Source of the DNA: Eledone cirrhosa
Taxonomy: Eukaryota
Assembly (NCBI GenBank): GCA_964016885.1
Contig: OZ024741.1
Coordinates: forward strand, 24,800,001-24,864,000
DNA length: 64,000 nucleotides
Reading direction: 5' to 3'
Shown: positions 1 through 25,549 of the stretch, in pieces
Position numbering within the stretch: the first letter of the stretch is position 1
Layout: the number at the start of each line of letters is the position of its first letter
Translations under genes and position numbers: made by a program
The notes under the pieces: generated by a model
Told to the model about the DNA's origin: nothing
Databases searched by the model: none
What the model saw: the letters and a program-made list of their open reading frames with translations, nothing else

Positions 1-146
1 GTCCTGAAAAGACTGCCCTAACACCGGCCAGAGTTATCTCCCTTGACCTACTGCAAAATCAATACATGTTTTTTTTACGAAGAATGAACTCTGACGTGAA
101 CTTATCTCTACAAACCCATTCCGAGTCATGTAAGGAACACTTTTTA

Positions 147-621: not shown

Positions 622-656
<35 letters not shown>

Positions 657-1148: not shown

Positions 1149-1175
1149 CCTTATTGTTCTTTATTTCTGTTACAG

Positions 1176-1421
1176 GAGATGAGAGAAGTAATAATAACAT
1201 TAATCTTCTTACTATCCGAACAATATTTCTCCGAGAACACAACAGGATAGCATGGAAACTTCACCTATTGAACCCTCATTGGAATAATGACCAGTTATTT
1301 TATACAACACGAGATATAATTGGTGCTGTACTTCAATATATAACATACAATGAATTATTACCAATTATCCTTGGTTCTAAAACAACAGCAACTTTAAAAC
1401 TTACCAGTCAATACAAATACA
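1176..1421 (+). CDS. Animal heme peroxidase-like protein, internal exon A
   Basis: Acceptor ttctgttacag|GA, donor A|gtaagt. Translates GDERSNNNINLLTIRTIFLREHNRIAWKLHLLNPHWNNDQLFYTTRDIIGAVLQYITYNELLPIILG, the GDxR / REHNR / NPxW / QxITYxExLP signature of peroxidase-cyclooxygenase family proteins. Confidence 0.92.
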
Positions 1422-3095: not shown

Positions 3096-3358
3096 TTAAT
3101 TGTTTTATATATATACCAACCCACATCAAACACTGAGTGTGTTTTACTATATATTTCTGACAATATTATAACAACATGACCCTCCCCAAATATAACAATA
3201 TATATACACACATATATATAGTATTAAATAGATTGAAGGCCATAATGCTCCAGCTTGTACCATTTAGTCATATTGTTGTGTGCTTTATTTTACCTGCATC
3301 ACAGCCGACTGACTAAAATTTGATTTACACATCCCTGGTCGGTTAGCCCCATATTATA

Positions 3359-3392
<34 letters not shown>

Positions 3393-3423
3393 TATTATTA
3401 TTACTATATAATGCAGCTATATA

Positions 3424-3870
3424 TCTTGTACATTCATATATTATACTGTACATCCATATATTACAGTTTACCTGTAATCCCACTACATCTCTTGTATATC
3501 CATATATTACAGTTTACCTGTAATCCCACTACATCTCTTGTACATCCATAGATTATACTGTTTATTGTAATCCCACTACATCTCTTGTACATCCATAGAT
3601 TATACTGTTTACCTGTAATCCCACTACATCTCTTGTACATCCATAGATTATACTGTTTAACTGTAATCCCACTACATCTCTTGTACATCCATATATTACA
3701 CTGTTCACCTGTAATCCCACTACATCTCTTGTACATCCATATATTATACTGTTTACCTGTAATCCCACTACATCTCTTGTACATCCATATATTGCACTGA
3801 TTGCATCTCATGAAATTTCTGCCCAGTTTTTCAACATACCCAGCAAGACCACTTCCCTTAAACTATCAAC
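3424..3870 (-). repeat. 48-bp minisatellite (~7 copies) amplified from a degenerate LINE (RTE-like) Cys/His-finger fragment
   Basis: Unit ctcttgtacatccatatattatactgtttacctgtaatcccactacat. The minus strand reads GKWSCWVC*K..GRNFMRCNQCNIWMYKRCSGITG, followed by repeats of YNIWMYKRCSGITGKQ. Confidence 0.75.
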
Positions 3871-4238
3871 TTCCTGTCCTCTTTTTTAAGTTTACTTTTA
3901 GGACTTTTGATTCAGTTTTTTTTCTAATTCTTGGAATTTTTCCAATTCCTATGAATGTGGCATAATATGTATTTGATGAACAATTTGAACATCTGTGTTA
4001 TAGATGTAAATGATTCTTTGACTGTTATTAAGAAAGCTACTGGAATTGTTAAGGTGTAGTGTGGTAAGGGTGAATGACAGGTCAAAATATTTTTCAACAT
4101 CAAGATGAAACATGAATGTAACAAACACACAAACATAATATTGTTTTTGTTATATACATTTACAATGTTAATATTCTATGTTAATTGCTTTTTATTTTAT
4201 ATTTTCAATTTTTTCAATTTTTTCTTTCATTTGTACAG

Positions 4239-4758
4239 ATTATGACCCCAAGCTAAATCCTTCCATCTTAAATTCTGTAGCCACTGCAGTTTTACGTTTT
4301 GGCTATTTCATGCAACAAGCAAATATTTTATCATACCGTGATAAAAAATATTCTCTAGTATGTAAACTGAAAGATCATTTCAGGCTCTTCATAAAACGCC
4401 CATCATTTTACTCTAAACAAAAGTACTACTTACCATTTAGCAGCATCACAAAAAATACAAAACCACTCTTTCAAACAATTACTGGAGCTGAAAACTTCGT
4501 CAGAGGTCAGTTAAACCAAAGAGCACAACAAGTTTCAGCTTACAGAATTGATGAGGAGTCGAGTTCCAGTCTTTTCAAAAATAATTTAGATCTGGGCAGT
4601 TCATACATACAAAGAGGAAGAGATCATGGTTTGCCTAGTTATACTCACTACAGGGTATTGTGTACTTCTTTTTACAACAAATATGTTGATGTGAAGAACT
4701 TCAAGGATTTGATCGACCATCCCTTGGCAGCCAGAAATGAACTGAGAAAGCTTTATAA
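4239..4758 (+). CDS. Animal heme peroxidase-like protein, internal exon B
   Basis: Acceptor tttgtacag|AT (phase 1, joins A to give AAT), donor AA|gtaaat. Contains YDPKLNPSILNSVATAVLRFGY and DLGSSYIQRGRDHGLPSY motifs. Confidence 0.92.
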
Positions 4759-4915
4759 GTAAATCCATTAATTTTCTATTTTATTTTATTTATTGCTTTT
4801 TCTCATATAAAAAAACTGCAGTCATTTATGTGATACAATCACTATTGAACTGTTGTCATTTATTGTCAAGCTATCACTTCATTGGGTAAGAGAAACTTTA
4901 TAAGGTATATATATA

Positions 4916-6495
4916 TGACTGAGAGAGTGTATATATACCTGACTGAGAGAGTATATATATCTGACTGAGAGAGTGTATATATACCTGACTGAGAGAGTAT
5001 ATATATCTGACTGAGAGAGTGTATATATACCTGACTGAGAGAGTATATATATCTGACTGAGAGAGTGTATATATACCTGACTGAGAGAGTATATATATAA
5101 CTGACTGAGAGAGTGTATATATACCTGACTGAGAGAGTATATATACCTGACTGAGAGAGTATATATACCTGACTGAGAGATTATATATACCTGACTGAGA
5201 GAGTATATATATCTGACTGAGAGAGTATATATACCTGACTGAGAGAGTGTATATATATATATATCTGACTGAGAGAGTATATATACCTGACTGAGAGAGT
5301 ATATATATCTGACTGAGAGATTATATATACCTGACTGAGAGAGTGTATATATATATATATCTGACTGAGAGAGTATATATATCTGACTGAGAGAGTGTAT
5401 ATATACCTGACTGAGAGAGTATATATATCTGACTGAGAGAGTGTATATATACCTGACTGAGAGATTATATATACCTGACTGAGAGAGTGTATATATATAT
5501 ATATCTGACTGAGAGAGTATATATATCTGACTGAGAGAGTGTATATATACCTGACTAAGAGAGTATATATATATATATATATATGACTGAGAGAGTATAT
5601 ATACCTGACTGAGAGAGTATATATATATATCTGACTGAGAGAGTATATATATACCTGACTGAGAGAGTATATATATATACCTGACTAAGAGAGTATATAT
5701 ATATATATATATGACTGAGAGAGTATATATATACCTGACTGAGAGAGTATATATCCCTGACTGAGAGAGTATATATCCCTGACTGAGAGAGTATATATAC
5801 CTGACTAAGAGAGTATATATATATATGGTGTGTATATATATATCTGACTGAGAGAGTATATATATACCTGACTGAGAGAGTATATATATATCTGACTGAG
5901 AGATTATATATACCTGACTGAGAGAGTATATATATCTGACTGAGAGAGTATATATACCTGACTGAGAGAGTGTATATATATATATATCTGACTGAGAGAG
6001 TATATATACCTGACTGAGAGAGTATATATATCTGACTGAGAGAGTATATATATCTGACTGACAGAGTGTATATATACCTGACTGAGAGATTATATATACC
6101 TGACTGAGAGAGTGTATATACCTGACTGAGAGAGTGTATATATATATATATCTGACTGAGAGAGTATATATATCTGACTGAGAGAGTGTATATATACCTG
6201 ACTGAGAGAGTATATATATATATATATATATGACTGAGAGAGTATATATACCTGACTGAGAGAGTATATATATCTGACTGAGAGAGTGTATATATACCTG
6301 ACTGAGAGAGTATATATATATATATATATATGACTGAGAGAGTATATATACCTGACTGAGAGAGTATATATATATATCTGACTGAGAGAGTATATATATA
6401 CCTGACTGAGAGAGTATATATACCTGACTGAGAGAGTATATATCCCTGACTGAGAGAGTATATATACCTGACTAAGAGAGTATATATATATATGG
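4916..6495. repeat. Intronic minisatellite CTGACTGAGAGAG(T/TG)(AT)n, units ~22-32 bp
   Basis: Dozens of tandem copies with a variable-length (AT)n spacer. Confidence 0.95.
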
Positions 6496-7040
6496 TGTGT
6501 ATATAAATAGACTTGGGATAATCCTATTGAGAATTGAAACTAAGATGGTGAAATTGAAGATTGTAAACTCTCGTTAACCTGAAACAATGGCCATATGATG
6601 TATGTTTATATAAACCAAACAAATGACATATATTGTGTTACAATAAACCATATACAAAATTACCAGGCTATAGATTGGTAGAATTTATAAAGTGTTGACA
6701 TACATAGTTGTTGTGGTATTTAGTTATAACTGTTGATGTTGTGAGTTCAAATCTTACCAAGATCAACTTTGTCTTATCTTTTTGTAGTAAATAAAATAAA
6801 GTACCAATCATGTACTATGATTGATTTAATATTCCTAACATCTTAGATGTGATTGGAATATTAATAGGAGATGGAAAATAAGAGAAACAGTGTAAAAACT
6901 GCTGTAAATCAATTTCTGATGATTATTTAACATTTTTTTAAACAATTTTATTTTCAATCAATTATTTTTTAAGATGACTTACATGCTAGTAACAAATAGT
7001 TTTTTTTCTCTCTCTCTCTCTCTATATATATATATAGTTA

Positions 7041-7198
7041 CATCATCAACATCATCATTTTACATCCGCTTTTCCCTGCTTGCAAGGGTGGGACGGGAAC
7101 TGATTCTGGCTTGATTTCTACAGCTGAGTAAACTGGAGCAATGTGACATAAAGCTTCTTGCTCACAACCTTTCGATTGTAAGGCCAATGCTCTAACCA
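7041..7198 (-). mobile_element. Internally deleted SINE family 1 copy
   Basis: Reverse complement of the head, centre and tail segments of the 2545-2916 SINE. Confidence 0.7.
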
Positions 7199-7253
7199 CA
7201 TGGATGATATTAACTTATATGTTACTAACCATAGTTATATATATAATTACAAG

Positions 7254-7510
7254 TCTTAGTGGTTAGAGCATTGGCCTTGCAATCGAAAGGTTGTGAGTTC
7301 AATTCACACAACCAGTTGATGTGTTGTTTCCTTGAGCAAGACACTTTATTCCACATTGCTCCAGTTTACTCAGCTGTAGAAATGAGATGATAGTACTGGG
7401 GTCCCTATCATTCCACTGCAAAGTGGTCGTGTAGGTGCCACGGCAAAAAAGCACCCAGCCCACACTGTAAAGTGGACGTGTAGGCGCCACGGCAAAAAAG
7501 CACCCAGCAC
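7254..7510 (+). mobile_element. SINE family 1 copy, 3'-truncated
   Basis: Highly similar to 2548-2805. Confidence 0.8.
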
Positions 7511-7669
7511 TCCTCTATTGAGGATTTTGTTATAAATTTTATTCTGTTATATTTTATTTTATTTTTATATTTTGTTATTGCCTCCTCCTTATTGAGGACA
7601 GCTTGTTTTGTAAACTTCCCCCATTGTACTTGTCCCACTTTTGATGCCCTGGTGGTAAATAAAAGAAAC
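7511..7669 (+). mobile_element. 5'-truncated 3'-UTR fragment of the Tx1/L1-like family
   Basis: tgtaaacttcccccattgtacttgtccc...tgccctggtggtaaataaaagaaa matches the 3' ends at ~13441-13500 and ~25482-25547. Confidence 0.75.
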
Positions 7670-7922
7670 ATATCTATGTTTATAGGTCTATAATCTAGCT
7701 GTCGTCTGTTCGACAGCGTAGACGTAATTCACTTCGCGCATAAGTTTTGTTCCAATTTATTGCGGAAATTTTGTAAGTTTAATTTTAATTTTGATACTAT
7801 TGTGTAGCTTGACCCCCCATCTGAACTGTCAGGCGGTGGGTCAGCTCATCTTCGCCCCTCCCAGGGGTGGAAAACCTGTTTTTAAAAGTTTTGTGGCATA
7901 AAATTTCAATCGTCTGGCAGAA

Positions 7923-9824
7923 ATGTTAAACGAAGCTAACGAAAATAGTGGTGGGGGGGGGGGGGGACAGCGGTAAGAGTTGTAAGCTCGCACGCTTTAG
8001 TCCCCTCTTCCTTCCCAACTAACATCATAGAGAAGGAAAGAAAAAATAAAATAAAAACAGACGAATGTGCGGAGAAAAATGACGAAAACACAAATCTGGA
8101 GATTGATTCCAACAACAACAAAAATTTGAAAGAATTGCATGACAATATTAATACCACAAACAAAGAAACAACAAACACAAAAATAACATTTGAAAACAAC
8201 ATCATAACAGAAAGCAAAACAGACGACAAAGTCAACACCAATAATATCTCATTTGCACAAACAACAAAAAATCTTTAACATATATACCTGAAAATATTTC
8301 AGATGTGGCACAAAGAATAAAAAACGCCAAACAATACATCACTCAAGGGGAAAATGGAACCTTATCGGTAAAAATGCCCCAAGAACTCACCAAAGATATT
8401 GAAAGTCGGACGGTCGTTTTCCGCACCATCAACAACATCTCAAAAAAAACCTCAACAACCAACACAAGCAGAAATTAAAGCAGTACTTAGAGAAGTACTT
8501 AATGAAGCCACTTTCATAAGAAGAGACAGGCTGTATGGAAGCCTAGCCATTATTATGAAGAACGAATCAGCGGCAAAAAAATATGCTTTGTCGCCGATTC
8601 GTTTGACAAATTTTACCTTTTATCCATCTTATATGGGTAAAAGAACTCAGCGCATATGGCTGGATGCGATGATGCCAGATATGGACTACTGCTGGCTCAT
8701 AGCTGGCTTCATCGATCCAGCGAATGACAACGTGATTTCCATTGGGAAAACCATAGGCAATGCGTTCAGTGGAACAGGTATAGAACTTGTAGTGCAAATG
8801 AAGCCTGAACGCATTGCCCAAATACCCGACAGAATCCTATTAGAGGGCCACGGGTATATAAACATTAGCGTGGAGGGGAGAAGGCCGTCCTGTCATATCT
8901 GTGCAGGCAGAGGACACCTGAAGGCGGCTTGTCCCCAACTCAACAAGAAGAAAACCCTGCTACCAACACCAGCTCCACCACCACCACAACAGATAAACAA
9001 ACAACAAAACTCAGTCCCACCCAACCCGTCCCTCAGTAAAACTACACCACCACCACAACACAAACAGACACAACACATTACCCAAAAACAAAACACAGTC
9101 CCACCCAACCCCTCACTCAATAAAACAACACAATCACCGCAGCCACAACGCAATACAATCTAACATAGTGACATCCATCTCCCCCACAAAGAAAACCAAC
9201 ACGGAAACATTACCAGCAAACATACTTCTTCCCTCCAACACTGAAGATAACCCAACGAATTCGGAGGAAGAAACGGAGTCCTTCAGACAAATTAAAAGGA
9301 AAAAAAAGAAAACATGTGCAAAACACACAAGGCCAAACAACCCCTACCCAAATGTCAACACAATCCAACAAAACACAAAACACCCCTCCAGCAACAAACA
9401 AAACCAAACCTGCCCCTCCCCTCTTCGAAACACTCACACCATCCGAAAAAAAGACATTACACTATACTTACATCAACAGAAACAATAATAAATTAAATGA
9501 ACTCATAAACAATAACCCTTCGGTACAAACCGAAGGGCTAAACTTTGTTTCTTCAGAAAACTACCCACATTTAAAATTAATAAAGATCCCAATGAACCTC
9601 TACCAAAAACTAAAAAAACGATTTTAAGGAGGACGTAGGACCACCCTCTGTCAAACCCATAAACCGCGTCCTCCTAAAAAGCTTTCCCCCTCCCCTTCAC
9701 AACTCCAAACACCCCAACCCCACCACACACTGACGACCCCACACCACTACAAGACACCCCTTCACCCAACACCCCCGACCCCATGGAAGTCGTGCGACCC
9801 AAACCCCGGGAAGAAGAAAGGTAG
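7923..9824 (+). pseudogene. ORF1 of LINE copy 1 (gag-like, zinc knuckle CHICAGRGHLKAAC), frameshifted
   Basis: Fragmented ORFs 8399-9163, 9168-9488 and 9316-9627 align with ORF1 of copy 2. Stop is TAG at 9822-9824. The start at 7923 is tentative. Confidence 0.75.
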
Positions 9825-9857
9825 GTCTCTACACTCTCCTTTGGCTTTGCCGCCCAC

Positions 9858-12800
9858 ATGGATGTGTTAAGAGTAGGATGTTTGAATGCACGTGGCCTGG
9901 GCTCAACTTGGAAGCAAGCAAAGCTTCTAAATGACCTCAGGTCACGTGGTATAAATGTAATGGTTATCTGTGAGACTCGGATCAGCGTCGTGCGGCAGCT
10001 GGCTCCTACCTTCGATGACTTTGAGGTGCATGCATCTCTCTGTCAACCTGGAGGTGGGGGTGGGGTTGTCGTACTGCTGGAAAAACACCTGGGTCTCGCC
10101 GTACAGGTTGTTCACTCGGACCCGGAAGGTCGTTTGTTGGTGCTAGACGTTGGCAGTAGTGGAGGTGCGGCCTTGAGACTGGTTGCCGTCTACTCCCCTT
10201 TCGGAGCTGAACGACCCGACTTCTTCCAGCGTCTGGAGACTTCTGGGAACGTCGCGTTCCCTGCTTCTAGCGGGGATTGGAATGACATCCTAGATGCACA
10301 TTGGGACTATGCAGGAGCATGTCCTAATAGAGGGGGGTGTAACAGCCTCAAGGGGTTACTCGACCGTTTTAACTTGGTCGATAGATATCGACTAGATTTT
10401 CCAACTGTGCCAACCTGGACTTGGACGAACCACAGTGGTCAATCTAGATTGAACTTAGATAGATTCTTAGTTAGAAGTAAGGATAGGGACATATTAAGCT
10501 GTCCAGAAATGCTCACGGTTGGCTATACAGATCACAAATTAGTGACCTGCGTAGTCAATCTCGAGAAAACACATAGACAGGGTCCCAGTTACTGGAAACT
10601 TAATTTGTCTTTACCGGCAAAAGAGGCTTACAGAAACCGGATTAGCAGATTAGTTAAGGAGAGGTTGACGGGTGCAATCGTCAACAACCGATGGTGGGCA
10701 TCTCTCAAAAGAGAGATTAGAACAGAATCAATAAGTTATAGCAAGATGTTAGCTGCCGATAGGAATAGGAACGAGAAAGAATTAACAGGTAAATTAGAAG
10801 AGGCAATCAAGAGCGAAGATGTGGCCAGAGTGCTGGCATCGAGGACGGCCTTGAGCCAGTTTTTCGATGCAAAGCACGAAAGCTGCGTCATCCGAAGTAA
10901 AATACGTGCTCTAGGTAATGAGGGGGCCAAAGCCGTTGGCTGGGTCCGCGTGACAAGCTAAGAGTGGAAATCGATCCACCATCCGGTCTTTGCAAGACGA
11001 GGATGGACAGGTGATCCGGGAGCCTAAGCAGATGTGCGAGGCCTTTCAAAGGCACTTTGCCCGATTGTTCGGGGGAGGCGAGGGTCCGGGCGGGGACGTG
11101 GATTTCGGTCCATACCTCGACGGCCTGCCGCGTCTCTCGAGCGTAGAGGCAGAGTCCTGCGAGGGACCAATCTCGGCTGATGAGATCGGGGATGCGCTGG
11201 GCCAATGCAGCAGACGCAAATCTCCAGGTCTCGATGGTATACCTTACGAACTTTATTTAGCAATGTCGGTCTTCTTCTCCGAACTCCTCGAAGCAGTCTA
11301 CTGCAATTGGCAGCAGAACGGGAGAATTCCTTGTTCTGTAGCCAAGGGCGTAGTCTCGCTAGTGAGGAAGGACGAGAACAAGGGGGATAGTATAAATAAT
11401 TTTCGGCCCATAACCCTGCTAAACACAGAGTTAAAGATTTTGGTCAAGGTGTTAGCAAAGAGGTTGGCGCTTGTCGTGGGTGGCCTGGTGGGAGATGCAC
11501 AGACATGTGCTATCCCATCCAGGTCCATTCACGACAACCTCCACCTCATGCGATACATCATAGAGAGGGTTGGCAACAAACCTGGCTTCGGTGGAGCCCT
11601 GATCAACTTGGATCAGTCTAAGGCGTTCGATAGGGTCGACCATGGTTACCTGGATGCGGTGCTAGCGGCGGCTGGGTTCGGTCCTGTTTTCAGAGGCTGG
11701 ATCACTGCCTTACATAGCAACCACATCTGTTCTAGGATCAAGGTGAACGGCTACCTTTCGAAGCCGTTCGAAATCACACGATCCATTCGACAGGGGTGCC
11801 CTCTCTCCTCCCTTCTGTACATATTGACTCTCGAGCCTTTACTGAGGAAGTTGGAGTTGTTGCAGGGTATCCCCCTGGAACCAGGATTGAGCAAAGCGGT
11901 GTCGGCCTATGCCGATGACGTAACAGTAATGGTATCGACCGACTCGGAGATCGAGGCAATCGGTACCTTACTGGAGGAATACGAAAGGTTGTCAGGAGCG
12001 AAACTGAACCGGGAAAAATCCATCGGGCTGCAACTTGGAACATGGAGAGGCAGACCGATGCCTCTCGACGGTGTCGTTGGACACTGGACGGAGGGCCCGG
12101 TGAAGTTGCTTGGGGTCTGGTTTGGACCGGACCTCCAGGTGGAAAAGAACTGGGGCGAGGTTACGAACAAGGTGTTTGCACTAACCCAGAAATGGGCCAA
12201 GTGTAAGCTGTCCCTAAAAGGTCGGGCGGAGGTGGCGAACATTTACATAGCGTCTGTCACTTACTACCGCCTGACTGTCGTGCCTTGCCCTAAGGAAACA
12301 CTCACCATCATGGAACGCATGCTCTTTCAATTTATTTGGAAGAAGCGCCCTCCTATGGTGAGAAGATCCATCTGCTGCCAACAACCTTCGAAAGGAGGGC
12401 TGGGGATGCCATGGTTGATGATGCGTAGGCACGCATTAAGGCTACGGCACCTACAGGTATTCCTCACTGGTCAACCAGTGTGGGCTCCGTTCGTGAAACG
12501 AGCCTTTCCGAGACTCGTCTCGCTCACCGAGCTGCAGTCCTGGATCAAGCAAAGATCCGGAAAACTGGCACACTGAGTGTGCCCAGGCACTCAGGGCTCT
12601 CTGGCAAGCGGACCCGGCCATCGGTGGAGAATCCACCTCGTCATTCTATAGAGGGCTGGTCGCTAGCAGGGGCGATGACACCCTTTGAGAGTCGCTGGAC
12701 ATGGAGGAGGACGAACTGGCCAGCCTGTTCGGTAGGACTTTCGGCCCGGGACCAATGGACAACTTCCAGAAGTCACTAGCCTGGCAGTGCTACCGGGGGT

Positions 12801-13282
12801 CTCTACCCGTTCGAGAAAAGCTCTACAGACACGGGCACCCGGGCAGGGATCCCTCGAAAAAGATTTGCCCTAGATGCGTGCGTCACGAAGAAACCGTTGC
12901 GCACGCATTGGTGCACTGTCCGGGCGTGGCTGATCTGTGGGGCTACGCCGAACGACTGCTGTCGCGGGTGGCGCCGATTCGATTGACCGCCGAGTCCGTG
13001 ATGACAATCAAACCGCCTCCCCTCTTCACAAAGGAAGCAAAGGCGGTTTTTCTGTGCGTAATAGCCATGTTGAAAGAGGTTGTTTGGTGGACACGATTGA
13101 AAGGTCTGAGGTCAGGCAACTTCCTCTCTGGCCATAGTCTGGTCTACTTCTTCCGATATCACTTCGGAAGAAGGATAAGAATGGAGAGAGAGGTGCTTGG
13201 CCACAGGCAGTTTTATGAAAGGTGGGTGATAGTGGCGAGAATGGCTCGTGTAAATGGGCCTTCTCTGTATACCATCCTGTAG
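9858..13282 (+). pseudogene. ORF2 of LINE copy 1 (APE endonuclease + reverse transcriptase), disrupted
   Basis: CLNARGL, GDWN, YTDH, PGLDG, FRPITLLN, QGCPLS, YADD and CPRC..ETVAHALVHC motifs. Relative to copy 2 there are compensating indels at ~10241-10257, a 2-bp loss at ~10956, an 8-bp deletion at ~12568 and a GGA>TGA change at ~12687. Confidence 0.9.
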
Positions 13283-13640
13283 GTAAAGAAGTGAAGGAGA
13301 GGGGAGCACCTTCTCCATGTGCTCCCTGGGCAAAGGATTGCACACTTTTTCGGGGGGGGGGGTGCAACCCCCATCACGTCCCCTCCTTTTTGAGGTTGTT
13401 TTTGATTATTTTCATTTTATACCCTTTTTACTCGGTTTTATGTAAACTCCCCCTTTGTATTTGTCCCTTCTTTTTATACCTTTAAGGTAAATAAAGAAAT
13501 ATATCTATGTTTATAGGTCTATATATATATATAATTACATAATGATATTGACTTATATGTTACTAAACATAGTTCTATATATAATTACATGGATGATATT
13601 AACCTATATATTACTAACACATGTTTTTCTATATGTATAG

Positions 13641-13798
13641 TTATGTAGAGGATATTGACTTGTTAACTGGTGGAATAACAGAGACACCAACAAATGGAGC
13701 TGTCTTTGGACCACTCTTTCAATGTTTATTGGGAACTCAAATGTCAACGTTAAAGTTTGGTGACAGGTTTTGGTACCAGAACAACAGATTCACTCCAG
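13641..13798 (+). CDS. Animal heme peroxidase-like protein, internal exon C
   Basis: Acceptor atgtatag|T (phase 2, joins AA to give AAT), donor CCAG|gtaaaa. Translates YVEDIDLLTGGITETPTNGAVFGPLFQCLLGTQMSTLKFGDRFWYQNNRFTP. Confidence 0.93.
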
Positions 13799-14347
13799 GT
13801 AAAACATTTATTTTATATAGTTTTTCTCTTTTAACTTTTTCTCTTTATTTCAGTTGTTGTTTTTGTTTTACTATAAATAAAGATAATAAACAGTTTCTAG
13901 CACTGTTATTGTGAGGGTATGGTGAACAGCTGTTGTTGTGTGTAGGATAGATCAGGCTATGGGCTGATCCTTCATGAAGATTATCTTATGCTACTTTGAC
14001 TAGGAAGAGCAGAAAGTTTTACTCAGGTAAACAAGATAAAATATTGTATGTTAGATAAAATTGAAATGGTTAACGGGGAAGACAACTCTTCTTTGAGCCC
14101 CTCATCTACTTTTTCATGTTCCACTTGTAGAGGAAGATGATCCTCTCCAGTAAACTTACTAAAAGGTAGATGATAGTGAAACCTTCACTGTACCTCATAC
14201 CTTGTATTGTCCTAACATGTGAAGCCCTTGTAGACAATGAAGAAAATATAATAATGATAATTGTTGTTATTGTTGCTGTTGTTATTTCAGTAGTTTTATT
14301 AATATGTCGAGCACAGTATGACTTGTTTTTCTTCTCTATTTTTCAAA

Positions 14348-14530
14348 TGTATTAAAAGTACTTTATATATATGTGCAGATGATGATGAGTGTTTAGTACT
14401 GTATTAAAAGTACTTTATATGATATGTGTGCAGTGTTTAGTATTGTATTAAAAGTACTTTATATGATATGTGTGCAGTGTTTAGTATTGTATTAAAAGTA
14501 CTTTATATAATATATGTATGCAGTATTTAG
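14348..14530. repeat. ~44-bp minisatellite, 3-4 copies
   Basis: gtgtttagtattgtattaaaagtactttatatgatatgtgtgca repeated. Confidence 0.8.
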
Positions 14531-14610
14531 TAACACTATTTCCTCTAGGTTGTAGTCCTCCCTTTGACTATTTCCTCATCATATTTACATGAAATAACAT
14601 TAAATAGAAT

Positions 14611-15695
14611 TCGATAATTATATCAACATCTTCTCTATTTTCAGATCAATTGAAATCAATAATTATATCAACATCTTTTCTATTTTCAGATCAATTGAAA
14701 TCAATAATTATATCAACATCTTCTCTATTTTCAGATCAATTGAAATCAATAATTATATCAACATCTTCTCTATTTTCAGATCAATTGAAATCAATAATTA
14801 TATCAACATCTTCTCTATTTTCAGATCAATTGAAATCAATAATTATATCAACATCTTCTCTATTTTCAGATCAATTGAAATCAATAATTATATCAACATC
14901 TTCTCTATTTTCAGATCAATTGAAATCAATAATTATATCAACATCTTCTCTATTTTCAGATCAATTGAAATCAATAATTATATCAACATCTTCTCTATTT
15001 TCAGATCAATTGAAATCAATAATTATATCAACATCTTCTCTATTTTCAGATCAATTGAAGTCAATAATTATATCAACATCTTCTCTATTTTCAGATCAAT
15101 TGAAATCAATAATTATATCAACATCTTCTCTATTTTCAGATCAATTGAAATCAATAATTATATCAACATCTTCTCTATTTTCAGATCAATTGAAATCAAT
15201 AATTATATCAACATCTTCTCTATTTTCAGATCAATTGAAATCAATAATTATATCAACATCTTCTCTATTTTCAGATCAATTGAAATCAATAATTATATCA
15301 ACATCTTCTCTATTTTCAGATCAATTGAAATCAATAATTATATCAACATCTTCTCTATTTTCAGATCAATTGAAATCAATAATTATATCAACATCTTCTC
15401 TATTTTCAGATCAATTGAAATCAATAATTATATCAACATCTTCTCTATTTTCAGATCAATTGAAATCAATAATTATATCAACATCTTCTCTATTTTCAGA
15501 TCAATTGAAATCAATAATTATATCAACATCTTCTCTATTTTCAGATCAATTGAAATCAATAATTATATCAACATCTTCTCTATTTTCAGATCAATTGAAA
15601 TCAATAATTATATCAACATCTTCTCTATTTTCAGATCAATTGAAATCAATAATTATATCAACATCTTCTCTATTTTCAGATCAATTGAAGTCAAT
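14611..15695 (+). repeat. 45-bp tandem array (24 copies) of the intron/exon-D junction
   Basis: Unit tcaataattatatcaacatcttctctattttcag|atcaattgaaa. Acceptor AGs run from 14643-14644 to 15678-15679 every 45 bp. Confidence 0.97.
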
Positions 15696-15779
15696 CCACT
15701 CAGTGAAGATGAGTAGAATCATCTTTGATAACACAAATATTAATGATATTCAAACAAACCCATTCCTTGTACCAAATAT
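15680..15779 (+). CDS. Animal heme peroxidase-like protein, exon D (shortest form; may start at any of 24 acceptors from 14645)
   Basis: G+AT gives D, then QLKSIHSVKMSRIIFDNTNINDIQTNPFLVPN, matching the family C-terminal QLxxIxxxxLxRIICDN motif. Donor AT|gtaagt at 15780. The following exon was not identified. Confidence 0.88.
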
Positions 15780-15799
15780 GTAAGTATTATTATTATTAT

Positions 15800-16013
15800 T
15801 AGGTTTGGTAGTATCGGTAGAGCATCGGATATCATACTTCATGGCATAGAGTTACAACCCTTTACATTCTGAGTTCAAATCCTGCCGAGGTTAGTTTTGC
15901 CTTTCATCCTCATGGGATTGATAAAATAAAGTACCAATAACGCACTGGGGTCAATTTTATCGACTTTCCCCTCCCCCAAAATTGTTGGCCTTGTGCCTAT
16001 ATAAGAAACCATT
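15800..16013 (+). mobile_element. tRNA-derived SINE (family 2)
   Basis: gagttcaaatcctgccgagg B-box-like head, gcctttcatcct..gggattgataaaataaagtacca core, ggccttgtgcc..agaaac tail. Confidence 0.75.
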
Positions 16014-16692
16014 ATTACCACCATCATCATCATCATCATCATCATCACTAGTCTTATTGTGTTATCACTTCATTACCAAGTACAACTCTGTACACATAGG
16101 ATATGTGCAGTGTGGTTTATGTATTGTGTTATCTAGTGTAGACTATGACTGAAAAAAGTCGTGGTGGTCAGCTTTGAATATATTTATGCTCAATCAAGTT
16201 TGATTTGGGGCTTAAAAGAAACAACAACTATATACAACATTGTATCCTAAAAACAAATTTTTTTTATATTTGATTAAAATAATTTTTTAATATTTGATTT
16301 AAAAAATTTTTAATATTTGATTAAAATATTTTTTTATATTTAATCAAGAGTTACGAAATTTAGTAGATAAATTATGTAATATTCATTCATTATTTCTTCA
16401 AAGTAGTCCAACTTATTTTACAAACAGGATAAAAAAATATATTCTGGATGCAGTCCCGCACTCCTTTCTTTATTATAGTTTAGATATATTATTAAATATG
16501 TATATTATCAAATATATATATTTAATAATATATCTATTATTAAATATATATGTTATTAAATATATATACTATTAAATATATATTTTCATATATTATTAAA
16601 TATATTTATTTAGTAATAATAATATATGTAGAAATAAACACAGTAAATTGTGTCTAAAATTTACTGCGTTTATTTCTACATATATTATTATA

Positions 16693-16873
16693 TAATTGTT
16701 TCTACTTTTGGCACAAGGCCAGCAATTAACCAGTACATTACTGGTACTTTATTTTATCGACCCCGTAAGGATGAAAGGCAAAGTTAACCTCGGCCGGATT
16801 TGAATTCAGACAGTAAAGGGACGTAACTATGCTGGAAAGCATGGCGTCCGACTCTCTACCGATACTGCGAATC
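16693..16873 (-). mobile_element. SINE family 2 copy
   Basis: Reverse complement of the 18362-18550 copy. Confidence 0.8.
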
Positions 16874-17396
16874 CATATTATATAATTGTTTCTATTTTTG
16901 GCACAATCCATATTATATAATGCTCACTATTTATACTTTGAGCTTGTTAATTACAGGGTATCAATATGAGTTAGTAAATTTGTATTTTATTTGTATATTT
17001 AATAATATATATTATTAAATATATTACTAAATATATACTATTATTAAATATATATTTTCATATATTATTAAATATATATAATATTAAATATATATATAAT
17101 ATTAAATATATATATTATTAAATATATATGTTATTAAATATATATACTATTTAATATATTATTAAATATATATACTATTTAATATATTATTAAATATATA
17201 TATTATTTAATATATTATTAAATATATATACTATTTAATATATTATTAAATGGTACTGTTTGTTGAAATGGCAAGAGCTCAGCTGTCAGGTCCCAACTCT
17301 TTATTATATAACCATACTCTACTATACCAAGTATCAAGTACTCTGTTCAGTAATGGTCTAACTATTTTCAAACTGGTTCTATCCTGAATTATATTA

Positions 17397-18349
17397 TCTA
17401 TATATATAAAACTGTGGTTGTCTGTCTGTCTATCGATTTTTGGCACACATCTCCTCTTAGAATCTCTCACGGAATTGCACCGAAATTGCTATACTTGTAC
17501 ATTGAGCCCTAGCGAAGACATCGGAAAAAAGAATATTTCAAATTGACCCACCCTATGTGACGAAATCGAATATAATGTATCGATTTTTGAGCGTAAGTTA
17601 TCAGTTATTTCCCTTTGTTCTGTTTACATTGAGTGTCTTACGTAAAAAATTACGCTGGCTTTAACAGTTGTCGAGCCAGCAAAATATTGACCTGCAAAAT
17701 TCATCAGTTCGAACACTAAGCTTCCGTTTTGCTTCATTTCCATTTAAAAGCATTTTAAAACAATATTTTTACTTGAAAACAAGTCTATTTAAAGACTACG
17801 TAAAACAAGCAAATATTTCGTCGTTAGGCGTGCAGACAGACAGTCGTGCAGACAGACAGTCGTGCAGAGAGGTGATATACGCGTGCAGACAGATAGTCGT
17901 GCAGAGAGGTGATATAGGCGTGCAGACAGACAGTCGTGCAGAGAGGTGATATAGGCGTGCAGACAGATAGTCGTGCAGAGAGGTGATATAGGCGTGCAGA
18001 CAGACAGTCGTGCAGAGAGGTGATATAGGCGTGCAGACAGACATAACTGATAATTTGGTTACGCTAATGTTTTTCTCTGCGTTGCAGTGTTTACATTTTC
18101 GATCTTTGTTAATAAATAACCAGTGCAGTTTCTATCCCCAGCATCCTCTTTTGTTATAACATTCGGGTTATCGTTATGTTTTCTTAACTTCCATAAGGCA
18201 TATTGTTGGTTGAGGGAATATTAATCAAAAACACCACATGCAAGTCTGCACAGTAGACACTACAGTTTTTAAGCCAAGAAAGAAACTTAACATTGTAACT
18301 TTAACACAGCTACTGAGCGACCCCGAGCAACGCCGGGCTTTACTGCTAG
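17397..18349 (+). mobile_element. Non-autonomous Helitron with internal 37-bp minisatellite
   Basis: A|TCTATATATATAAA 5' end, subterminal hairpin cccgagcaacgccggg, CTAG|T 3' end, no TSD. Internal repeat gcgtgcagacagacagtcgtgcagagaggtgatatag at ~17828-18042. Confidence 0.88.
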
Positions 18350-18361
18350 TTAAATATATAT

Positions 18362-18550
18362 AAGGTGGTGAATTGGTAGTATCGGTAGAGGGTTGCACGC
18401 CATGCTTTCTAGCATAGTTACGTCCCTTTACGGTCTGAGTTCAAATCCTGTCGAGGTTAACTTTACCTTTCATCTTTACGGGGTCGATAAAATAAAGTAC
18501 CAGTAATGTACTGGGTAATTGCTGGCCTTGTGCCAAAAGTAGAAACAATT
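18362..18550 (+). mobile_element. SINE family 2 copy
   Basis: Head ggtggtgaattggtagtatcggtagag...gagttcaaatcc, core ggggtcgataaaataaagtaccag. Confidence 0.8.
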
Positions 18551-18623
18551 ATTAAATATATTATTTTAAAAAATATATTATTATTAAATATATATATTTT
18601 CAAATATATTATTAAATGCACAT

Positions 18624-18800
18624 TCATCATCATCATCATCATCATCATCGTTTAACGTCCATCTTCCACGCTAGCATGGGATTGGACGGGAATTTTCCCA
18701 CTTGAGGCAAGATTGGTTGTCTTGCTCATATAGGACTGTCTGGCAGGTTTTCTACGGCTGGATGCCCTTCCTAACACCAACCACATTTACAGTGTGGGAC
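18624..18800 (-). mobile_element. 3' tail of an RTE-like LINE/SINE ending in (ATG)n
   Basis: (CAT)n-cgtttaacgtcc...gctagcatg and ggctggatgcccttcctaacacc match the family-1 SINE tail in reverse. A shorter tail fragment lies at ~1718-1769. Confidence 0.65.
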
Positions 18801-19085
18801 TGGGAGGTTTTTACCGTGTTACCTACACGGCCACATTACAGCATGGACTGTGTGTGTTTTTGTCGTGACACCTACACGACCTCATTTGTTTCGGACTGGT
18901 TGTTGTGGTACCAACATAACTTTACATTAGAATGGGTGGTGTGGATGGGGTGGAGGTAGTGGGGCGGGGTGTATTTTTGTTAGAGGTGCCTACTGACTGT
19001 AGGTTTCGCTTTGTACTTAGGCAAGGCCGGTCTTCTGCATTACACATTATTAAATATATATCATTATTAGATATATAAATGTACA

Positions 19086-19571
19086 TATTGTATATTTAAT
19101 AATATACTGTGTTTATTTTAAAACATTTTGAAGGTGTTTCGCTGTGAATTTAAGGTAGTGACTATAGTCACATACCTAGCTGCAGCAAAAACAAAGGGAA
19201 ATAACCGACGATCGTTACTCGCTGTTTAGCGGTTATCAATGTTATATATCCATCTCTGTTTTTGCTGTGAGATGTAGAAGTTTGTATTCTTATAGAATAC
19301 CAATTATGTTTATGAGCTGTTTAAACTCATTAACATACAGAGTGGTTGCCAGCCTAGCAACGATTAGAAATTTGTGTGGAGCTCTGAAATAGCGATGTAT
19401 ATATATGAATGTATGTATTGTATATTTAATAAACAACGAGAAACAATCATCGGTTATTTCCCTTTGTTTTAGCCGAAGCTAGGTATGTGACTATAGTCAC
19501 CACCTTAAATTTATAGCGAAATATCTTCAAAATGTTTTTAAATAAACACAGTATATTATTAAATATACAAT
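19086..19571. mobile_element. MITE-like element with ~140-bp terminal inverted repeats
   Basis: 19086-19228 is approximately the reverse complement of 19430-19571. Confidence 0.75.
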
Positions 19572-19601
19572 ACACACATTCATATATATATATCATTGCT
19601 T

Positions 19602-19748
19602 TGAAGCATAGAGTTACGTCCCTTTATGATCTGAGTTCAAATCCTGCCGAGGTTAACTTTGCCTTTCATCCTTACGGGGTCGATAAAATAAAGTACCAGT
19701 AATGTACTGGGTAATTGCTGGCCTTGTGCCTAAAATAGAAACAATTAT
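19602..19748 (+). mobile_element. SINE family 2 copy, 5'-truncated
   Basis: Closely matches 18410-18550. Confidence 0.8.
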
Positions 19749-19789
19749 TTCAGAGCTCCAATACAAAATATTTAATATATATATATATA

Positions 19790-20173
19790 CTAGCAGTAAA
19801 GCCCGGCGTTGCTCGGGGTCGCTCAGTAGCTGTGTTAAAGTTACAATGTTAAGTTTCTTTCTTGGCTTAAAAACTGTAGTGTCTACTGTGCAGACTTGCA
19901 TGTGGTGTTTTTGATTAATATTCCCTCAACCAACAATATGCCTTATGAAGTTAAGAAAACATAACGATAACCCGAATGTTATAACAAAAGAGGATGCTGG
20001 GGATAGAAACTGCACTGGTTATTTATTAACAAAGATCGAAAATGTAAACACTGCAACGCAGAGAAAAACATTAGCGTAACCAAATTATCAGTTATGTCTG
20101 TCTGCACGCCTATATCACCTCTCTGCACGACTGTCTGTCTGCACGCCTATATCACCTCTCTGCACGACTGTCT
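19790..20173 (-). mobile_element. Second copy of the 17397-18349 Helitron, inverted, cut by the assembly gap
   Basis: Near-exact reverse complement of ~17965-18349 (one G missing at ~19947), with different flanks. Confidence 0.9.
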
Positions 20174-20373
20174 NNNNNNNNNNNNNNNNNNNNNNNNNNN
20201 NNNNNNNNNNNNNNNNNNNNNNNNNNNNNNNNNNNNNNNNNNNNNNNNNNNNNNNNNNNNNNNNNNNNNNNNNNNNNNNNNNNNNNNNNNNNNNNNNNNN
20301 NNNNNNNNNNNNNNNNNNNNNNNNNNNNNNNNNNNNNNNNNNNNNNNNNNNNNNNNNNNNNNNNNNNNNNNNN
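20174..20373. other. Assembly gap (200 N)
   Basis: Round-number N run. True length and contiguity are unknown. Confidence 0.99.
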
Positions 20374-21863
20374 GAGCCACGGAATACAAAGCCATTGACA
20401 TCACGAACGCCAAGGAAAATTTGCTAGAGGCTAGAAAATACGTATCTTTTGGGGAGGTTCTTTTACGATCAACTCCCCAGAAGAAGTGCGTGAACAGATT
20501 TACAAGAATACCGTAAGCTACAGAACCATAACCAACGAAACGAGAAAGCCAGCGCAATTGACCGAAAGTCAAATCGAGCTGGTTCTGAAAGAAATTAAAA
20601 ATGACATACTCTTTATTCAAAGAGGAAAGCTGTATGCCAGCATTATGGTCCGAATGAAGGACGAAATGCTGGCTCAGAAATATTCGGTGGCACCTATAGT
20701 GTCACCACAATACACCTTCTTCCCCCACATATAAAGGAAGAAGAACACAAAGGATAAGAATGTGGAGCCCTACGCCAGAAATTAACATCTGGTCCGTCCT
20801 AACAGGATTTACCGACCTAGATAAGGACATACTAATTTCAGCAGGGGAGTCCACCAGTGGACTGTTCGGGGGGAAAAGTCTGGAGGTTCTCTTACAGATG
20901 ACACCTGAGAGAATCTCCGGAATACCCGACCGAGTGCTACTGGATGGGCGAACCTACATAAATATCACAGTGGAAGGCAGGAGACCCTCATGTTACCACT
21001 GCGCTGGCAGAGGTCACCTGAGGACGGCCTGCCCTCTACTAACAACTAAAAAACCACTGCTACAAACACCACAACAACAACAAAAACAACCAGCACCACC
21101 ATCACAAAAACAACAAAATACACTACCATCTCCACCAGAACAACAAAAACCAACAACACCACCACCACCACCACCACAACAACAACAACATCAACAACAG
21201 CTCAAGAAAACAACCCAAAACACGGTCCCACCCAGCCCCACCCCACAGAACACAAATACAAAAACAGTTCATACACAACCCGGAGATATACCCCTCCCCT
21301 CCAATACGGAAGAGGAGCTCATATCGTCGGAAGACGAGGGGGCTCCCTTCCAAAAAGTGAAAAGAAAAAAACGTACACACACCACAACAACAAAAATAAC
21401 CCCACCTGACAACACAACACAGACAATAAAACGCAAACTCACTCAACAACAACAAGCAAAAACAAACACAACAACACAAAAACTCTACACATACATAAAC
21501 AAAAACAATGAAAACCTAACTTTAAAAATAGAAACCAACCCTTCGATACAAACCGAAGGGCCGAATTTCGTAACGGCAATGGGGCTCCCTAACCTGAAAA
21601 TGGTGAAAATCCCACTTGACATTTTTAAAACTTTAAAAGACATGTACCCTGAGGACGTGGGCCCACCCTGCACCAGGCCACTCAACCGCGTCCTCCTGAA
21701 AGGTTTTCCCCTCCCCTCCTCAAACACCCACACAACTCCAAAGATCCCAACCCCTCCACACACCAATACCCCCACACCACCACAAACCACCACCCCACCC
21801 ATCAACCCCGCCACCAGCCCCATGGAAACTGAGCGACCCGAACCCCGGGACGCAGAGAGGTAA
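20374..21863 (+). CDS. ORF1 of LINE copy 2 (partial; CCHC knuckle CYHCAGRGHLRTAC, Pro/Gln/Thr-rich)
   Basis: ORF 20760-21863 plus upstream pieces. The two frame changes fall in homopolymers (~20447-20454, ~20722-20726), possibly consensus errors near the contig edge. Confidence 0.8.
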
Positions 21864-21886
21864 GTGCCTCTTTCTTTGCCACCAAC

Positions 21887-24800
21887 ATGGCTGTCTTAAG
21901 AGTGGGTTGTCTAAATGCGCGTGGCCTGGGCTCACCTTGGAAGCAAGCTAAACTTCTAAGTGACCTCAGGTCACAATGTGTAAATGTGATGGTTATTTGC
22001 GAGGCCCGGATCAGCAGCATGCGACAGCTAACCCCCACCTTTGATGACTTTGAGATGCACGCATCTCTCTGTCAGCCCGGAGGTGGGGGTGGGGTTGTCG
22101 TTCTGCTGCAAAAACATCTGGGTCTCGCTACACAGACAGTACACTTGGACCCGGAGGGTCGACTCGTGGTTCTGGACCTTGGCAATGGCGAAGGCGAAGC
22201 TTTTAGGCTTGTCGCCGTATACGCCCCTTTTGGGGCAATGCGGTCGGACTTCTTCCATCGTCTGGAGACTTTTCTAGGGACGTCCCGCTCCTTGCTTTTA
22301 GTGGGGGACTGGAATGGTATCCTAGATGCACGTTGGGACTATGTAGGGGCATGTCCCGATAGAGGGGGGTGTAACAGCCTTAAGGGGTTAATCGGCCGAT
22401 TCGACCTGGCCGATAGATACCGACTAGATTTTCCGACTGTACCAACCTGGACCTGGTCAAATAATAGTGGTCAATCTAGATCGTACCTAGATAGGTTCTT
22501 AGTTAGAATTAAGGATAGGGACTTTTTAAGTTGTCCAGAAATGCTCATGGTGGGCTATTCAGACCACAAGTTAGTGACCTGCGTAGTCCACCTTGATAGA
22601 ACGCATAGGCAGGGGCCCGGTTACTGGAAGCTCAACTTGTCCTTACCGGCAAGTAGAGCTTACAGGGACCGGATTAGAACCTTAGTTAAGGAGCAGTTGA
22701 CGGGCGCCATCGTCAACAACAGGTGGTGGGGCTCTCTAAAAAGAGAGATTAGAGTAGTTTCAATAGGAGTTAGTAAGGAGTTAGCCTCAGATAGAAATAG
22801 GAAGGAAAGGGAGTTGGTAGTTAATGTTGAAGAGGCAATGAGAAGCGGCAACGTGGCCAGAGTGCAAGCGTCGAGAACGGTCTTGAACCAGTTCTTCGAC
22901 GCGAAACACGAAGGCTGCGTTGTCCGAAGCAAAATACGTGCTCTGGGAAACGAGGGGACCAAAGCTGTTAGCTGGGCCCGCGTGACAGAAGCGAAAAGTG
23001 GGATTAAATCCACTATCCGGTCTTTGCGAGACCAGGATGGACGGCTGATCCTTGAACCTAAGCAAATGTGCGAGGCCTTTCAAAGGCACTTTGCCCAATT
23101 GTTCGGGAGGGGCGGGGAGCCGGTTGGAGATGTGGATTTCGGTCCATACCTCGACGGCCTGCCGCGTCTTTCGGACAGGGAGGCGAGGTCCTGCGACGGG
23201 CCGATCTCAGCTGCTGAAATAGGGGACGTGCTGAGCCTATGCGGCAAACGCAAATCTCCAGGACTCGATGGTCTGCCCTACGAACTATATATTAATATGC
23301 CGGACTTGTTCCCCGATCTCCTCGAGGCGGTCTACTGCAACTGGCAACAGAACGGGAGAATTCCCTGTTCTGTGACCAAGGGCGTAGTCTCGCTAGTGAG
23401 GAAGGACGAGAACAAGGGGGATGACATTAGTAATTTTAGGCCCATAACTCTGCTAAATGCAGAGTTAAAGATTTTGGCGAAGGTGTTAGCGAAGAGGTTG
23501 GCGCTTGTCGTGGGGGGCCTGGTGGGAGATGCGCAGACATGCGCTATCCCGTCCAGGTCCATCCACGACAACCTCCACCTCATGCGATACATCATAGAGA
23601 GGGTTGGGAACGAACCCGGCTTTGGTGGGGCCCTGATAAATTTAGATCAGTCTAAAGCGTTCGATAGGGTGGACCATGGTTACCTGGATGCGGTGCTAGC
23701 GGCGGCTGGGTTCGGACCCGTTTTCAGGGGCTGGATCACTGCCATGCACAGCAGCCGCATCTGCTCTAGAATCAAGGTGAACGGCTACCTTTCGGAGCCG
23801 TTCGAAATCACCCGCTCCATCCGACAGGGGTGCCCTCTCTCCTCCCTTCTGTATGTATTGACTCTCGAGCCATTACTGCGGAAGTTGGAGTTGTTGCAGG
23901 GCATCCCTTTGGAACCGGGATTGCGCAAAGCGGTGTCGGCCTACGCCGATGACGTAACAGTAATGGTGTCGACCGCCTCAGAAATCGAGGCAATCGGCAC
24001 CTTACTAGAGGAGTACGAAAGGTTGACAGGGGCTAAGCTGAACCGGGACAAGTCAGTCGCTTTGCAACTCGGCGAGTGGAGGGGCAAAGCGATGTCGTGC
24101 GACGGTATCGTCGGACGGTGGACGGAGGGCCCGGTGAAGTTGCTTGGGGTCTGGTTCGGACCGGACCTCCAGGTGGAGAAAAACTGGGGTGAGGTGACGA
24201 ATAGGGTGTTTGCACTGACCCAGAAGTGGGCCGAGTGCAAACTATCCCTAAAAGGTCGGGCGGAGGTGGCGAACGCTTACATAGCGTCCGTCATCTATTA
24301 CCGCTTGACTGTCGTGCCTTGCCCGGGTGAGATCCTCGCCAAAATGGAGCGCGCCCTCTTTTATTTCCTTTGGAAGAAGAGGTCTCCTCTAGTGAGGAGA
24401 TCCATCTGCTGTCAACACCCTTTGAAAGGAGGGCTGGGGATGCCGTGGCTAAAAATGCGTAAACACGCATTGAGGCTAAGGCACCTCCACGTATTCCTCA
24501 CCGGTCAACCGGTGTGGGCCCCGTTTGTGAGGCGAGCCTTCCCGAGGCTCGTCTCGCTCACCGAGCTGCAGTCTTGGGTGAAGCAAAGACCGAGAAAACT
24601 GGGCGACTGGCACACCGAGTGTGCCCAGGCGCTCACGGCTCTCTGGCAGGCGGACCCGGCTATCAACGGAGACTCCACCTCGTCATTCTATAGAGGGCTG
24701 GTGGTTAGCGGGTGCGACGACGCCCTCGGAGAAGCCCTAGGCATGGAGGAGGACGAACTGGCCAGTCTATTCAGTAGGACTTTCGGCCCGGGACCTATGG

Positions 24801-25324
24801 ACAACTTCCAGAAGTCCTTGGCCTGGCAGTGCTACCGAGGGGCTCTGCCCGTTCGGGATAAGCTCTACAGACACGGGCGCCCGGGTAGGGACCCCTCGAA
24901 AAAGATCTGTCCCAGATGCGTGCGCGACGAGGAAACCGTCGCGCACGCATTGGTGCACTGCCCGGGCGTTGCCGATCTGTGGGGCTATGTCGAACGACTG
25001 CTGTCACGGGTGGGACCAATTAGGTTGACCACCGAGTCCATTGTAACGATCAAGCCGCCTCCCCCCTTCAAAAATGAAGGAGAGGCGGTCTTCCTCTGTG
25101 TAATAGCCATGGTAAAAGAGGCTATATGGTGGACGCGTCTGAAAGGGCTGAGGTCGGACACCTTTCTCTCCGGCCAACAACTGGTCCTTTTCTTCCGATA
25201 CCATTTCGGAAGAAGGATCAGGATGGAGAGAGAGGTGCTCCACTCCAGCCAGTTTTATGAAAGGTGGGTGAAAGTTGCGAGAATGGCCCGTGTGAATGGG
25301 CCTTCTCTCTACCTCAGCCTGTAG
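21887..25324 (+). CDS. ORF2 of LINE copy 2: APE endonuclease, reverse transcriptase, C-terminal zinc finger (1145 aa)
   Basis: Uninterrupted ORF with CLNARGL, VYAP, GDWN, YLDRFL, YSDH, PGLDG, FRPITLLN, DQSKAFD, QGCPLS, YADD, LLGV and CPRC..ETVAHALVHC. Confidence 0.97.
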   Translation: MAVLRVGCLNARGLGSPWKQAKLLSDLRSQCVNVMVICEARISSMRQLTPTFDDFEMHASLCQPGGGGGVVVLLQKHLGLATQTVHLDPEGRLVVLDLGNGEGEAFRLVAVYAPFGAMRSDFFHRLETFLGTSRSLLLVGDWNGILDARWDYVGACPDRGGCNSLKGLIGRFDLADRYRLDFPTVPTWTWSNNSGQSRSYLDRFLVRIKDRDFLSCPEMLMVGYSDHKLVTCVVHLDRTHRQGPGYWKLNLSLPASRAYRDRIRTLVKEQLTGAIVNNRWWGSLKREIRVVSIGVSKELASDRNRKERELVVNVEEAMRSGNVARVQASRTVLNQFFDAKHEGCVVRSKIRALGNEGTKAVSWARVTEAKSGIKSTIRSLRDQDGRLILEPKQMCEAFQRHFAQLFGRGGEPVGDVDFGPYLDGLPRLSDREARSCDGPISAAEIGDVLSLCGKRKSPGLDGLPYELYINMPDLFPDLLEAVYCNWQQNGRIPCSVTKGVVSLVRKDENKGDDISNFRPITLLNAELKILAKVLAKRLALVVGGLVGDAQTCAIPSRSIHDNLHLMRYIIERVGNEPGFGGALINLDQSKAFDRVDHGYLDAVLAAAGFGPVFRGWITAMHSSRICSRIKVNGYLSEPFEITRSIRQGCPLSSLLYVLTLEPLLRKLELLQGIPLEPGLRKAVSAYADDVTVMVSTASEIEAIGTLLEEYERLTGAKLNRDKSVALQLGEWRGKAMSCDGIVGRWTEGPVKLLGVWFGPDLQVEKNWGEVTNRVFALTQKWAECKLSLKGRAEVANAYIASVIYYRLTVVPCPGEILAKMERALFYFLWKKRSPLVRRSICCQHPLKGGLGMPWLKMRKHALRLRHLHVFLTGQPVWAPFVRRAFPRLVSLTELQSWVKQRPRKLGDWHTECAQALTALWQADPAINGDSTSSFYRGLVVSGCDDALGEALGMEEDELASLFSRTFGPGPMDNFQKSLAWQCYRGALPVRDKLYRHGRPGRDPSKKICPRCVRDEETVAHALVHCPGVADLWGYVERLLSRVGPIRLTTESIVTIKPPPPFKNEGEAVFLCVIAMVKEAIWWTRLKGLRSDTFLSGQQLVLFFRYHFGRRIRMEREVLHSSQFYERWVKVARMARVNGPSLYLSL

Positions 25325-25549
25325 GTGGAACAAAAAGAAGGGACCACCCTCTCTTAGTGCTCCCGTGGAGAAGGGTCGCACACTTTTTTTCGGGGGTGTG
25401 TGTGACCCCAAAACGATCCCTCCCTATTGAGGACCTTCTTGTTATTATTTTGTTTGTTATATTTTTCTTACTCGATTTTTATGTAAACTCCCCCCACCCA
25501 TGTACATGTCCCTTTCTTTTGTGCCCTAGTGGCAAATAAACAGAAATTT

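Follow-up and report, generated by a model that had tools for sequence, protein, structure and literature searches.

The acceptor of exon D in a peroxidase-like gene of Eledone cirrhosa is repeated 24 times, always in frame, within a homogeneous 45-bp minisatellite that is a real feature of the DNA, and comparison with an inverted sister copy of the gene and with described boundary-spanning repeats suggests that the last acceptor is probably the one mainly used, the extra units leaving with the intron. Within the window, the 64,000-nt stretch analysed here (contig OZ024741.1 (G000:C2), 24800001-24864000; plain positions refer to the window, plus strand), the 24 TTTTCAG acceptors are spaced by exactly 45 nt in 23 of 23 intervals, placing the first exon base of each at 14645 + 45n up to the last at 15680 (Table 1). 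This confirms the first-pass annotation of the sequence, which had described 24 stop-free acceptors that keep the frame and add up to 345 aa; its claim that exon C ends in phase 1 was also correct, as the exon leaves one base. The reading frame stays open through exon D whether exon C is joined to the first acceptor, which adds 23 x 15 = 345 aa, or to the last, which adds 0, and the 45-bp unit is open in two of the three plus-strand frames. When all 24 units were compared to unit 3, differences appeared only at 14613, 14678, 15060 and 15690. The AAG variant that the first reading had seen in both unit 10 and the terminal unit was recovered by this comparison, while the unit-2 variant at 14678, which changes Ser to Phe in the first repeat, had gone unremarked.

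Each acceptor possesses its own pyrimidine tract and an AG-free zone of ~43 nt, and the intron-side contexts are equal. The exon-side contexts differ: real exon sequence follows only the last acceptor, 100 nt from the GTAAGT donor, and several of the upstream acceptors would yield plausible exons of 145-505 nt. Two other known arrangements were considered and rejected. NAGNAG-type tandem acceptors are ruled out by the 45-nt spacing, the separate tracts and the AG-free zone of ~43 nt, and recursive splicing by the absence of a GT after the exon-side AG of the unit, which provides no new donor.

To be refuted, the first-pass annotation had stated, the array would have to appear as a single unit in raw reads, which would make it an assembly artefact. 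In unassembled sequencing data the unit is multi-copy. A 75-bp contig (45 + 30, the collapsed loop expected at k = 31) was present in three runs of one sample at depths of 56.7, 64.6 and 190.4, whereas the copy-specific intron next to it reached 4.8, 2.8 and 10.7 in the same runs. The summed loop-to-flank ratio is 17 (range 12-23) and the assembly predicts ~22; since read depth is not copy number and the assembly may have been built from this very sample, the agreement is to be read as many copies in the reads and not as an independent count of 24. The array is thus real, and a single-unit reality is excluded by a loop 12-23x deeper than its flank.

Table 1. Features of the array and its host gene (window positions)
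Feature	Position	Strand	Remarks
Exon A (PF03098 214-293)	1176..1421	+	Profile match; more exons upstream of the window
Exon B, proximal-His motif reads RFGY	4239..4758	+	520 nt; PF03098 match
Exon C (PF03098 446-498)	13641..13798	+	Phase-1 donor at 13799; matches myeloperoxidase heavy chain 361-405
Acceptor tract copied exactly over 13 bp, no AG after it	14330..14342	+	Left junction of the probable deletion in the inverted copy
Intron segment absent from the inverted copy	14346..14629	+	Of 31 genomic matches, 1 full-length
45-bp minisatellite	14603..15695	+	TRF; 24.3 copies, 99% identity
Repeat unit, from the junction			34 nt of intron end (pyrimidine tract + AG) + 11 nt of exon start
Intron-side microhomology	14603..14615	+	10 of 13 bases match the exon start at 15683-15695
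First acceptor	14630..14644	+	Intron 846 nt, exon D then 1,135 nt
Unit-10 variant AAG	15060..15060	+	Common to the terminal unit (15690) and the inverted copy
Last acceptor, then the true exon	15665..15679	+	Intron 1,881 nt, exon D 100 nt
Exon D, same as the inverted copy's exon D	15680..15779	+	Donor GTAAGT at 15780
End of sister homology (~17400), repeat pair, assembly gap	17398..20373	.	No exon E found

Exons A, B and C all match the animal haem peroxidase family (3 of 3; 61.7-94.2 bits against a PF03098 cut-off of 25). All junctions are GT-AG, exons A-D run for 340 codons without a stop, and three additional exon pieces were found upstream of the window. Reading through exon D past the 15780 donor leads to a stop after one codon. 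Both gene copies read SQAISNDL where the homologues P0002 and P0003 read GQFLDHDI, and RFGY where the homologues P0001-P0003 read RFGH or RMGH. We take the replaced positions, from myeloperoxidase chemistry, to be the distal and proximal histidines; presumably, then, the distal His has become Asn and the proximal His Tyr in both copies, which sets the gene apart from the active members of the family. Since both presumed catalytic histidines are replaced, a change that the first-pass annotation had missed, the product is probably a non-catalytic peroxidase pseudoenzyme. The replacement sites lie near window position 4300 and near contig position 24792060, with mirror positions in the inverted copy, and the frame across them is open. 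The homologue search with exon B returned only three distant proteins, two molluscan and one crustacean, at 26-30%, and among them no annotated orthologue or mRNA model.

A second copy of the gene lies on the minus strand 50–160 kb upstream (exon A at contig position 24754427, exon D at 24654640) and carries one acceptor before an identical exon D, a fact absent from the first-pass annotation. It continues into a terminal exon E, 1,231 nt beyond exon D, with an open A-E frame of 370 codons. Together the copies form a head-to-head inverted duplication of the whole gene (contig 24653680-24817407; window part 1-17407). Substitutions between the arms rise from 0.4-0.6% around the centre to 1.6-9% at greater distance, and two rows at 16% over the LINE are read as different insertions in the arms. 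Exons A-D differ at 3 of ~1,024 bases (99.7% identical) against 1.6-9% in the nearby introns, so that selection or conversion, and not decay, may still be acting on the array-bearing copy. The exon C variants at 13647 and 13666 tell the two copies apart.

That the two copies are haplotypes of one locus folded back by the assembly, with the array as an allelic polymorphism, or that the copy number was misassembled, we consider very improbable. Around the centre the arms share about 99% identity, one of them ends 2.7 kb before a contig gap, a single exon E was assembled, and the depth ratios would fit two alleles or two paralogs alike. A folded haplotype is nevertheless hard to reconcile with the palindrome centre, a unique 1.4-kb spacer (contig ~24782010-24783453), with the lack of any N over 190 kb between the copies, with the many insertion differences between the arms, and with distal substitution of up to 5-9%; a single-unit reality is excluded by the loop depth reported above.

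The sister's intron ends at the junction of the 13-bp tract copy with the acceptor itself. The intron segment that it lacks is partly homologous in a relative, and the last bases of this segment form part of the repeat unit. Because it occurs once at full length in the genome and in part in the relative, the segment is likely ancestral and the sister most likely deleted it; an array already present might have been lost with it. A transposon insertion with target-site duplication, suggested by the flanking direct repeat, was rejected on the single full-length match and on the partial presence of the segment in the relative.

Reads of this relative (organism B) gave one contig across exon C and the following intron (13623-14098), at ~90% and a depth of 15.8. 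A second covers 14581-14660 with 10 differences at a depth of 14.4 and then continues for 217 letters foreign to the window; the AAA/AAG position, 14655, lies six letters from its aligned end. Since this contig leaves the array where a single-acceptor gene would, at single-copy depth, we infer from the part of the table of pieces covered that the relative apparently has no array and a single acceptor. The comparison with related species that the first-pass annotation had proposed is thereby made for one relative only, with apparently one acceptor. Unit counts stand at 24 here, 1 in the sister and apparently 1 in the relative, with the array itself seen in one sample only. Among eight other peroxidase loci, six have an exon-D homologue within 1.5 kb and share the C/D exon split, and two have no exon D in range; a tandem repeat over the exon-D acceptor was found at none of these six. 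Exon C differs from the relative in 7 of 52 codons, with 4 non-synonymous changes against 3 synonymous ones; small as this sample is, it suggests loose constraint on the gene.

As to origin, the first duplication was probably seeded by microhomology between 14603-14615 and 15683-15695, and the array then probably grew by slippage or unequal exchange, a history to which the junction and the unit-10 variant point. The first-pass annotation had proposed a microhomology-driven origin; microhomology is present and the reading of the origin holds, but its extent had been understated, since 10 of 13 bases match. The AAG variant common to units 10 and 24 likewise still reads as a trace of unequal exchange. 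The array could have been tolerated given that a complete single-acceptor copy exists and that the gene seems weakly constrained. Repeat turnover in the region is high. In the 264 kb analysed, arrays with a period of 20-100 and at least 5 copies number 21 after merging, per 107,382 bases outside arrays; this gives a chance of roughly 0.8% that one splice boundary is straddled by a 40-bp seed, a rough figure that ignores selection. A duplication across this acceptor can arise in 3,440 ways, of which 1,147 are in frame and 596 (17%) are in frame and also stop-free; frame and openness are therefore weak evidence of function. A preserved frame could also mean that the array survived because its leakage does no harm.

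By its structural features, the array can be placed among the mirages, which are described as minisatellite-like duplications of an intron 3' end together with the 5' part of the exon, in units of 10-160 bp (PMC3087553). Its unit combines 34 nt of intron with 11 nt of exon, the boundary being fixed by the single-acceptor sister, and its 45-bp units are homogenised to 99%, with TTTTCAG in 24 of 24. Mirages are known in amphioxus Adh3, the globins BflGb6 and BflGb9, troponin C and PGBD5 (PMC3087553, PMC3902484), the last two having been added by PMC3902484; they are described as unstable in length and, in many cases, as retaining AG/GT signals, with regular splicing undisturbed by RT-PCR (PMC3087553). 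The Eledone array resembles them, as described there, in its boundary-spanning unit, a unit size inside the 10-160 bp range, the retained AG and the traces of unequal exchange. It differs in scale and uniformity, with 24 units at 99%, all with AG, in frame and stop-free, whereas the BflGb6 mirage is reported with 3-6 units at 81-100%. Furthermore, the host is not a cephalochordate, a single-acceptor paralog adjoins, and the array is known from DNA alone. No mollusc or cephalopod mirage, nor any closer parallel, was found among the literature matches listed.

Two human systems offer partial parallels. In the 37-bp VNTR of F7 IVS7, as reported in PMC1557585, identical repeated donors are silent and the exon-adjacent site is used; the likeness lies in a boundary-spanning repeat that creates identical pseudo-sites, but F7 repeats the donor, for which its authors propose 5'-to-3' scanning, whereas the Eledone array repeats the acceptor, so that the exon-adjacent site is the last transcribed. 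Paralogs from human segmental duplications (PMC2812944) are alike as recent gene copies that differ by a boundary minisatellite. The cases described there came to light through transcripts, and new introns inside the repeats are often involved; the Eledone unit has no donor and is known from DNA only. Use of the last site would be a described outcome for such arrays (mirages and F7 IVS7) and would not call for an unknown mechanism.

The first-pass annotation had offered three readings of the array: a ladder of length isoforms, a long insert forced by the first AG, or a mechanism selecting the last of the equal sites. Its interpretation as a whole is partly supported. Last-acceptor use is the best supported of the three; for the ladder and forced-insert readings we found no positive evidence. 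Predominant use of the last acceptor is favoured because the sister has an identical exon D with one acceptor and an open frame, because local repeat turnover is high, because a preserved frame without stops is expected in 17% of duplications, and because the relative's contig leaves the array at single-copy depth (14.4 vs 15.8). Mechanistically, exon definition would pair the 15780 donor with the acceptor closest to it, yielding a 100-nt exon from the sole acceptor that precedes real exon sequence. An exon-centric proximity rule has been described for long introns; for 3' splice sites in the long-intron context, the same account gives the upstream preference as 'significantly reduced' and shows no reversal (PMC9225289). 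Several other points also count against last-acceptor use. With a 520-nt exon B tolerated, the limit on exon size is soft and more than one acceptor is plausible; the units, each with an AG-free zone of its own, are all almost perfect, unlike those reported for BflGb6 (81-100%); human boundary repeats often have a transcript that retains the repeat (66%, see below); and the near-identity of exons A-D between the copies allows for selection or conversion on the array-bearing one.

In a rival reading, several acceptors would be used to differing degrees, the last few most of all, giving an in-frame isoform ladder of 0 to n extra 15-aa units that would escape nonsense-mediated decay. We regard this as unlikely. 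Although the 24 acceptors hardly differ in their local sequence and all keep a stop-free frame, frame and openness together amount to the 17% chance event noted above; the sister is without the array, and so, apparently, is the relative. Published comparisons point in both directions: alternative transcripts are often seen for boundary repeats in human paralogs, the repeat-retaining transcript being reported as well in 66% of such cases in duplicated genes (PMC2812944), and human data often prefer upstream 3' sites (PMC9225289), while mirages are reported to give no aberrant mRNA (PMC3087553, PMC3902484). Moreover, an insert of 15-aa units would fall within the C-terminal region of the PF03098 fold. 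In a bolder version, rather unlikely on present evidence, the array would act as a splice-encoded length dial, with 0 to 23 Ser/Ile-rich 15-aa units produced here and the plain form from the inverted twin; if true, minisatellite length would tune a protein family from one non-catalytic peroxidase-like gene.

The remaining reading turns on the 3' end of the gene, where a further feature had escaped the first-pass annotation: the terminal exon of the array-bearing copy is missing. No exon E was detected by motif or alignment in the 78 kb downstream, and genome-wide the only match is the sister's. Homology to the sister ends where a repeat element has gone into a TA run; the element and its inverted twin (17965-18362 and 19776-20173, 99%) lie within 17408-20373, and the twin is cut by an assembly gap (20174-20373), so that the copy either is 3'-truncated or has its exon E within that gap. 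The first acceptor might win, as an intron-centric proximity rule (PMC9225289) would have it, and create a 345-aa low-complexity insert, the array being a lesion of a dying, 3'-truncated duplicate, or the copy might be silent; the lack of exon E in the assembly and the stop of homology near 17400 at the repeat element both fit. Nonetheless, flanking introns of more than 800 nt on both sides favour exon definition, no stop interrupts the exons, which match the sister's at 99.7%, and exon E may sit in the gap. Overall, we judge this reading distinctly improbable.

The locus is informative in several respects. The array extends mirages to a probable mollusc, and it offers a clean natural experiment on how a 3' splice site is chosen, with 24 near-identical acceptors and every product in frame; because every product is in frame, decay cannot hide the use of upstream acceptors. 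The single-acceptor twin with the same exon D is an internal control, separable by the two exon-C variants, and the locus could tell, in an invertebrate, whether proximity acts from the exon side or from the intron side.

The surroundings are rich in repeats, which look octopus-like. An intronic 22-bp repeat occupies 1.6 kb here (4905-6490) and forms a 76.5-kb satellite in the sister (contig 24670134-24746651, ~3,294 units), where intron B-C reaches 93.7 kb. Two related LINE-like retrotransposons lie on the plus strand at ~7700-13500 and ~20374-25530; the first sits in intron B-C and has stops, and a third relative, about 83% identical, sits in the sister copy's intron. An imperfect inverted repeat at 19068-19590 (74% over about 550 bp) is MITE-like. 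Finally, a 49-bp satellite extends for >65 kb, from 25749 to 64000 in the window and on to at least contig position 24894000, and its TRF rows recur at an offset of 8,095 bp (e.g., 33395 and 41490), which suggests a higher-order repeat.
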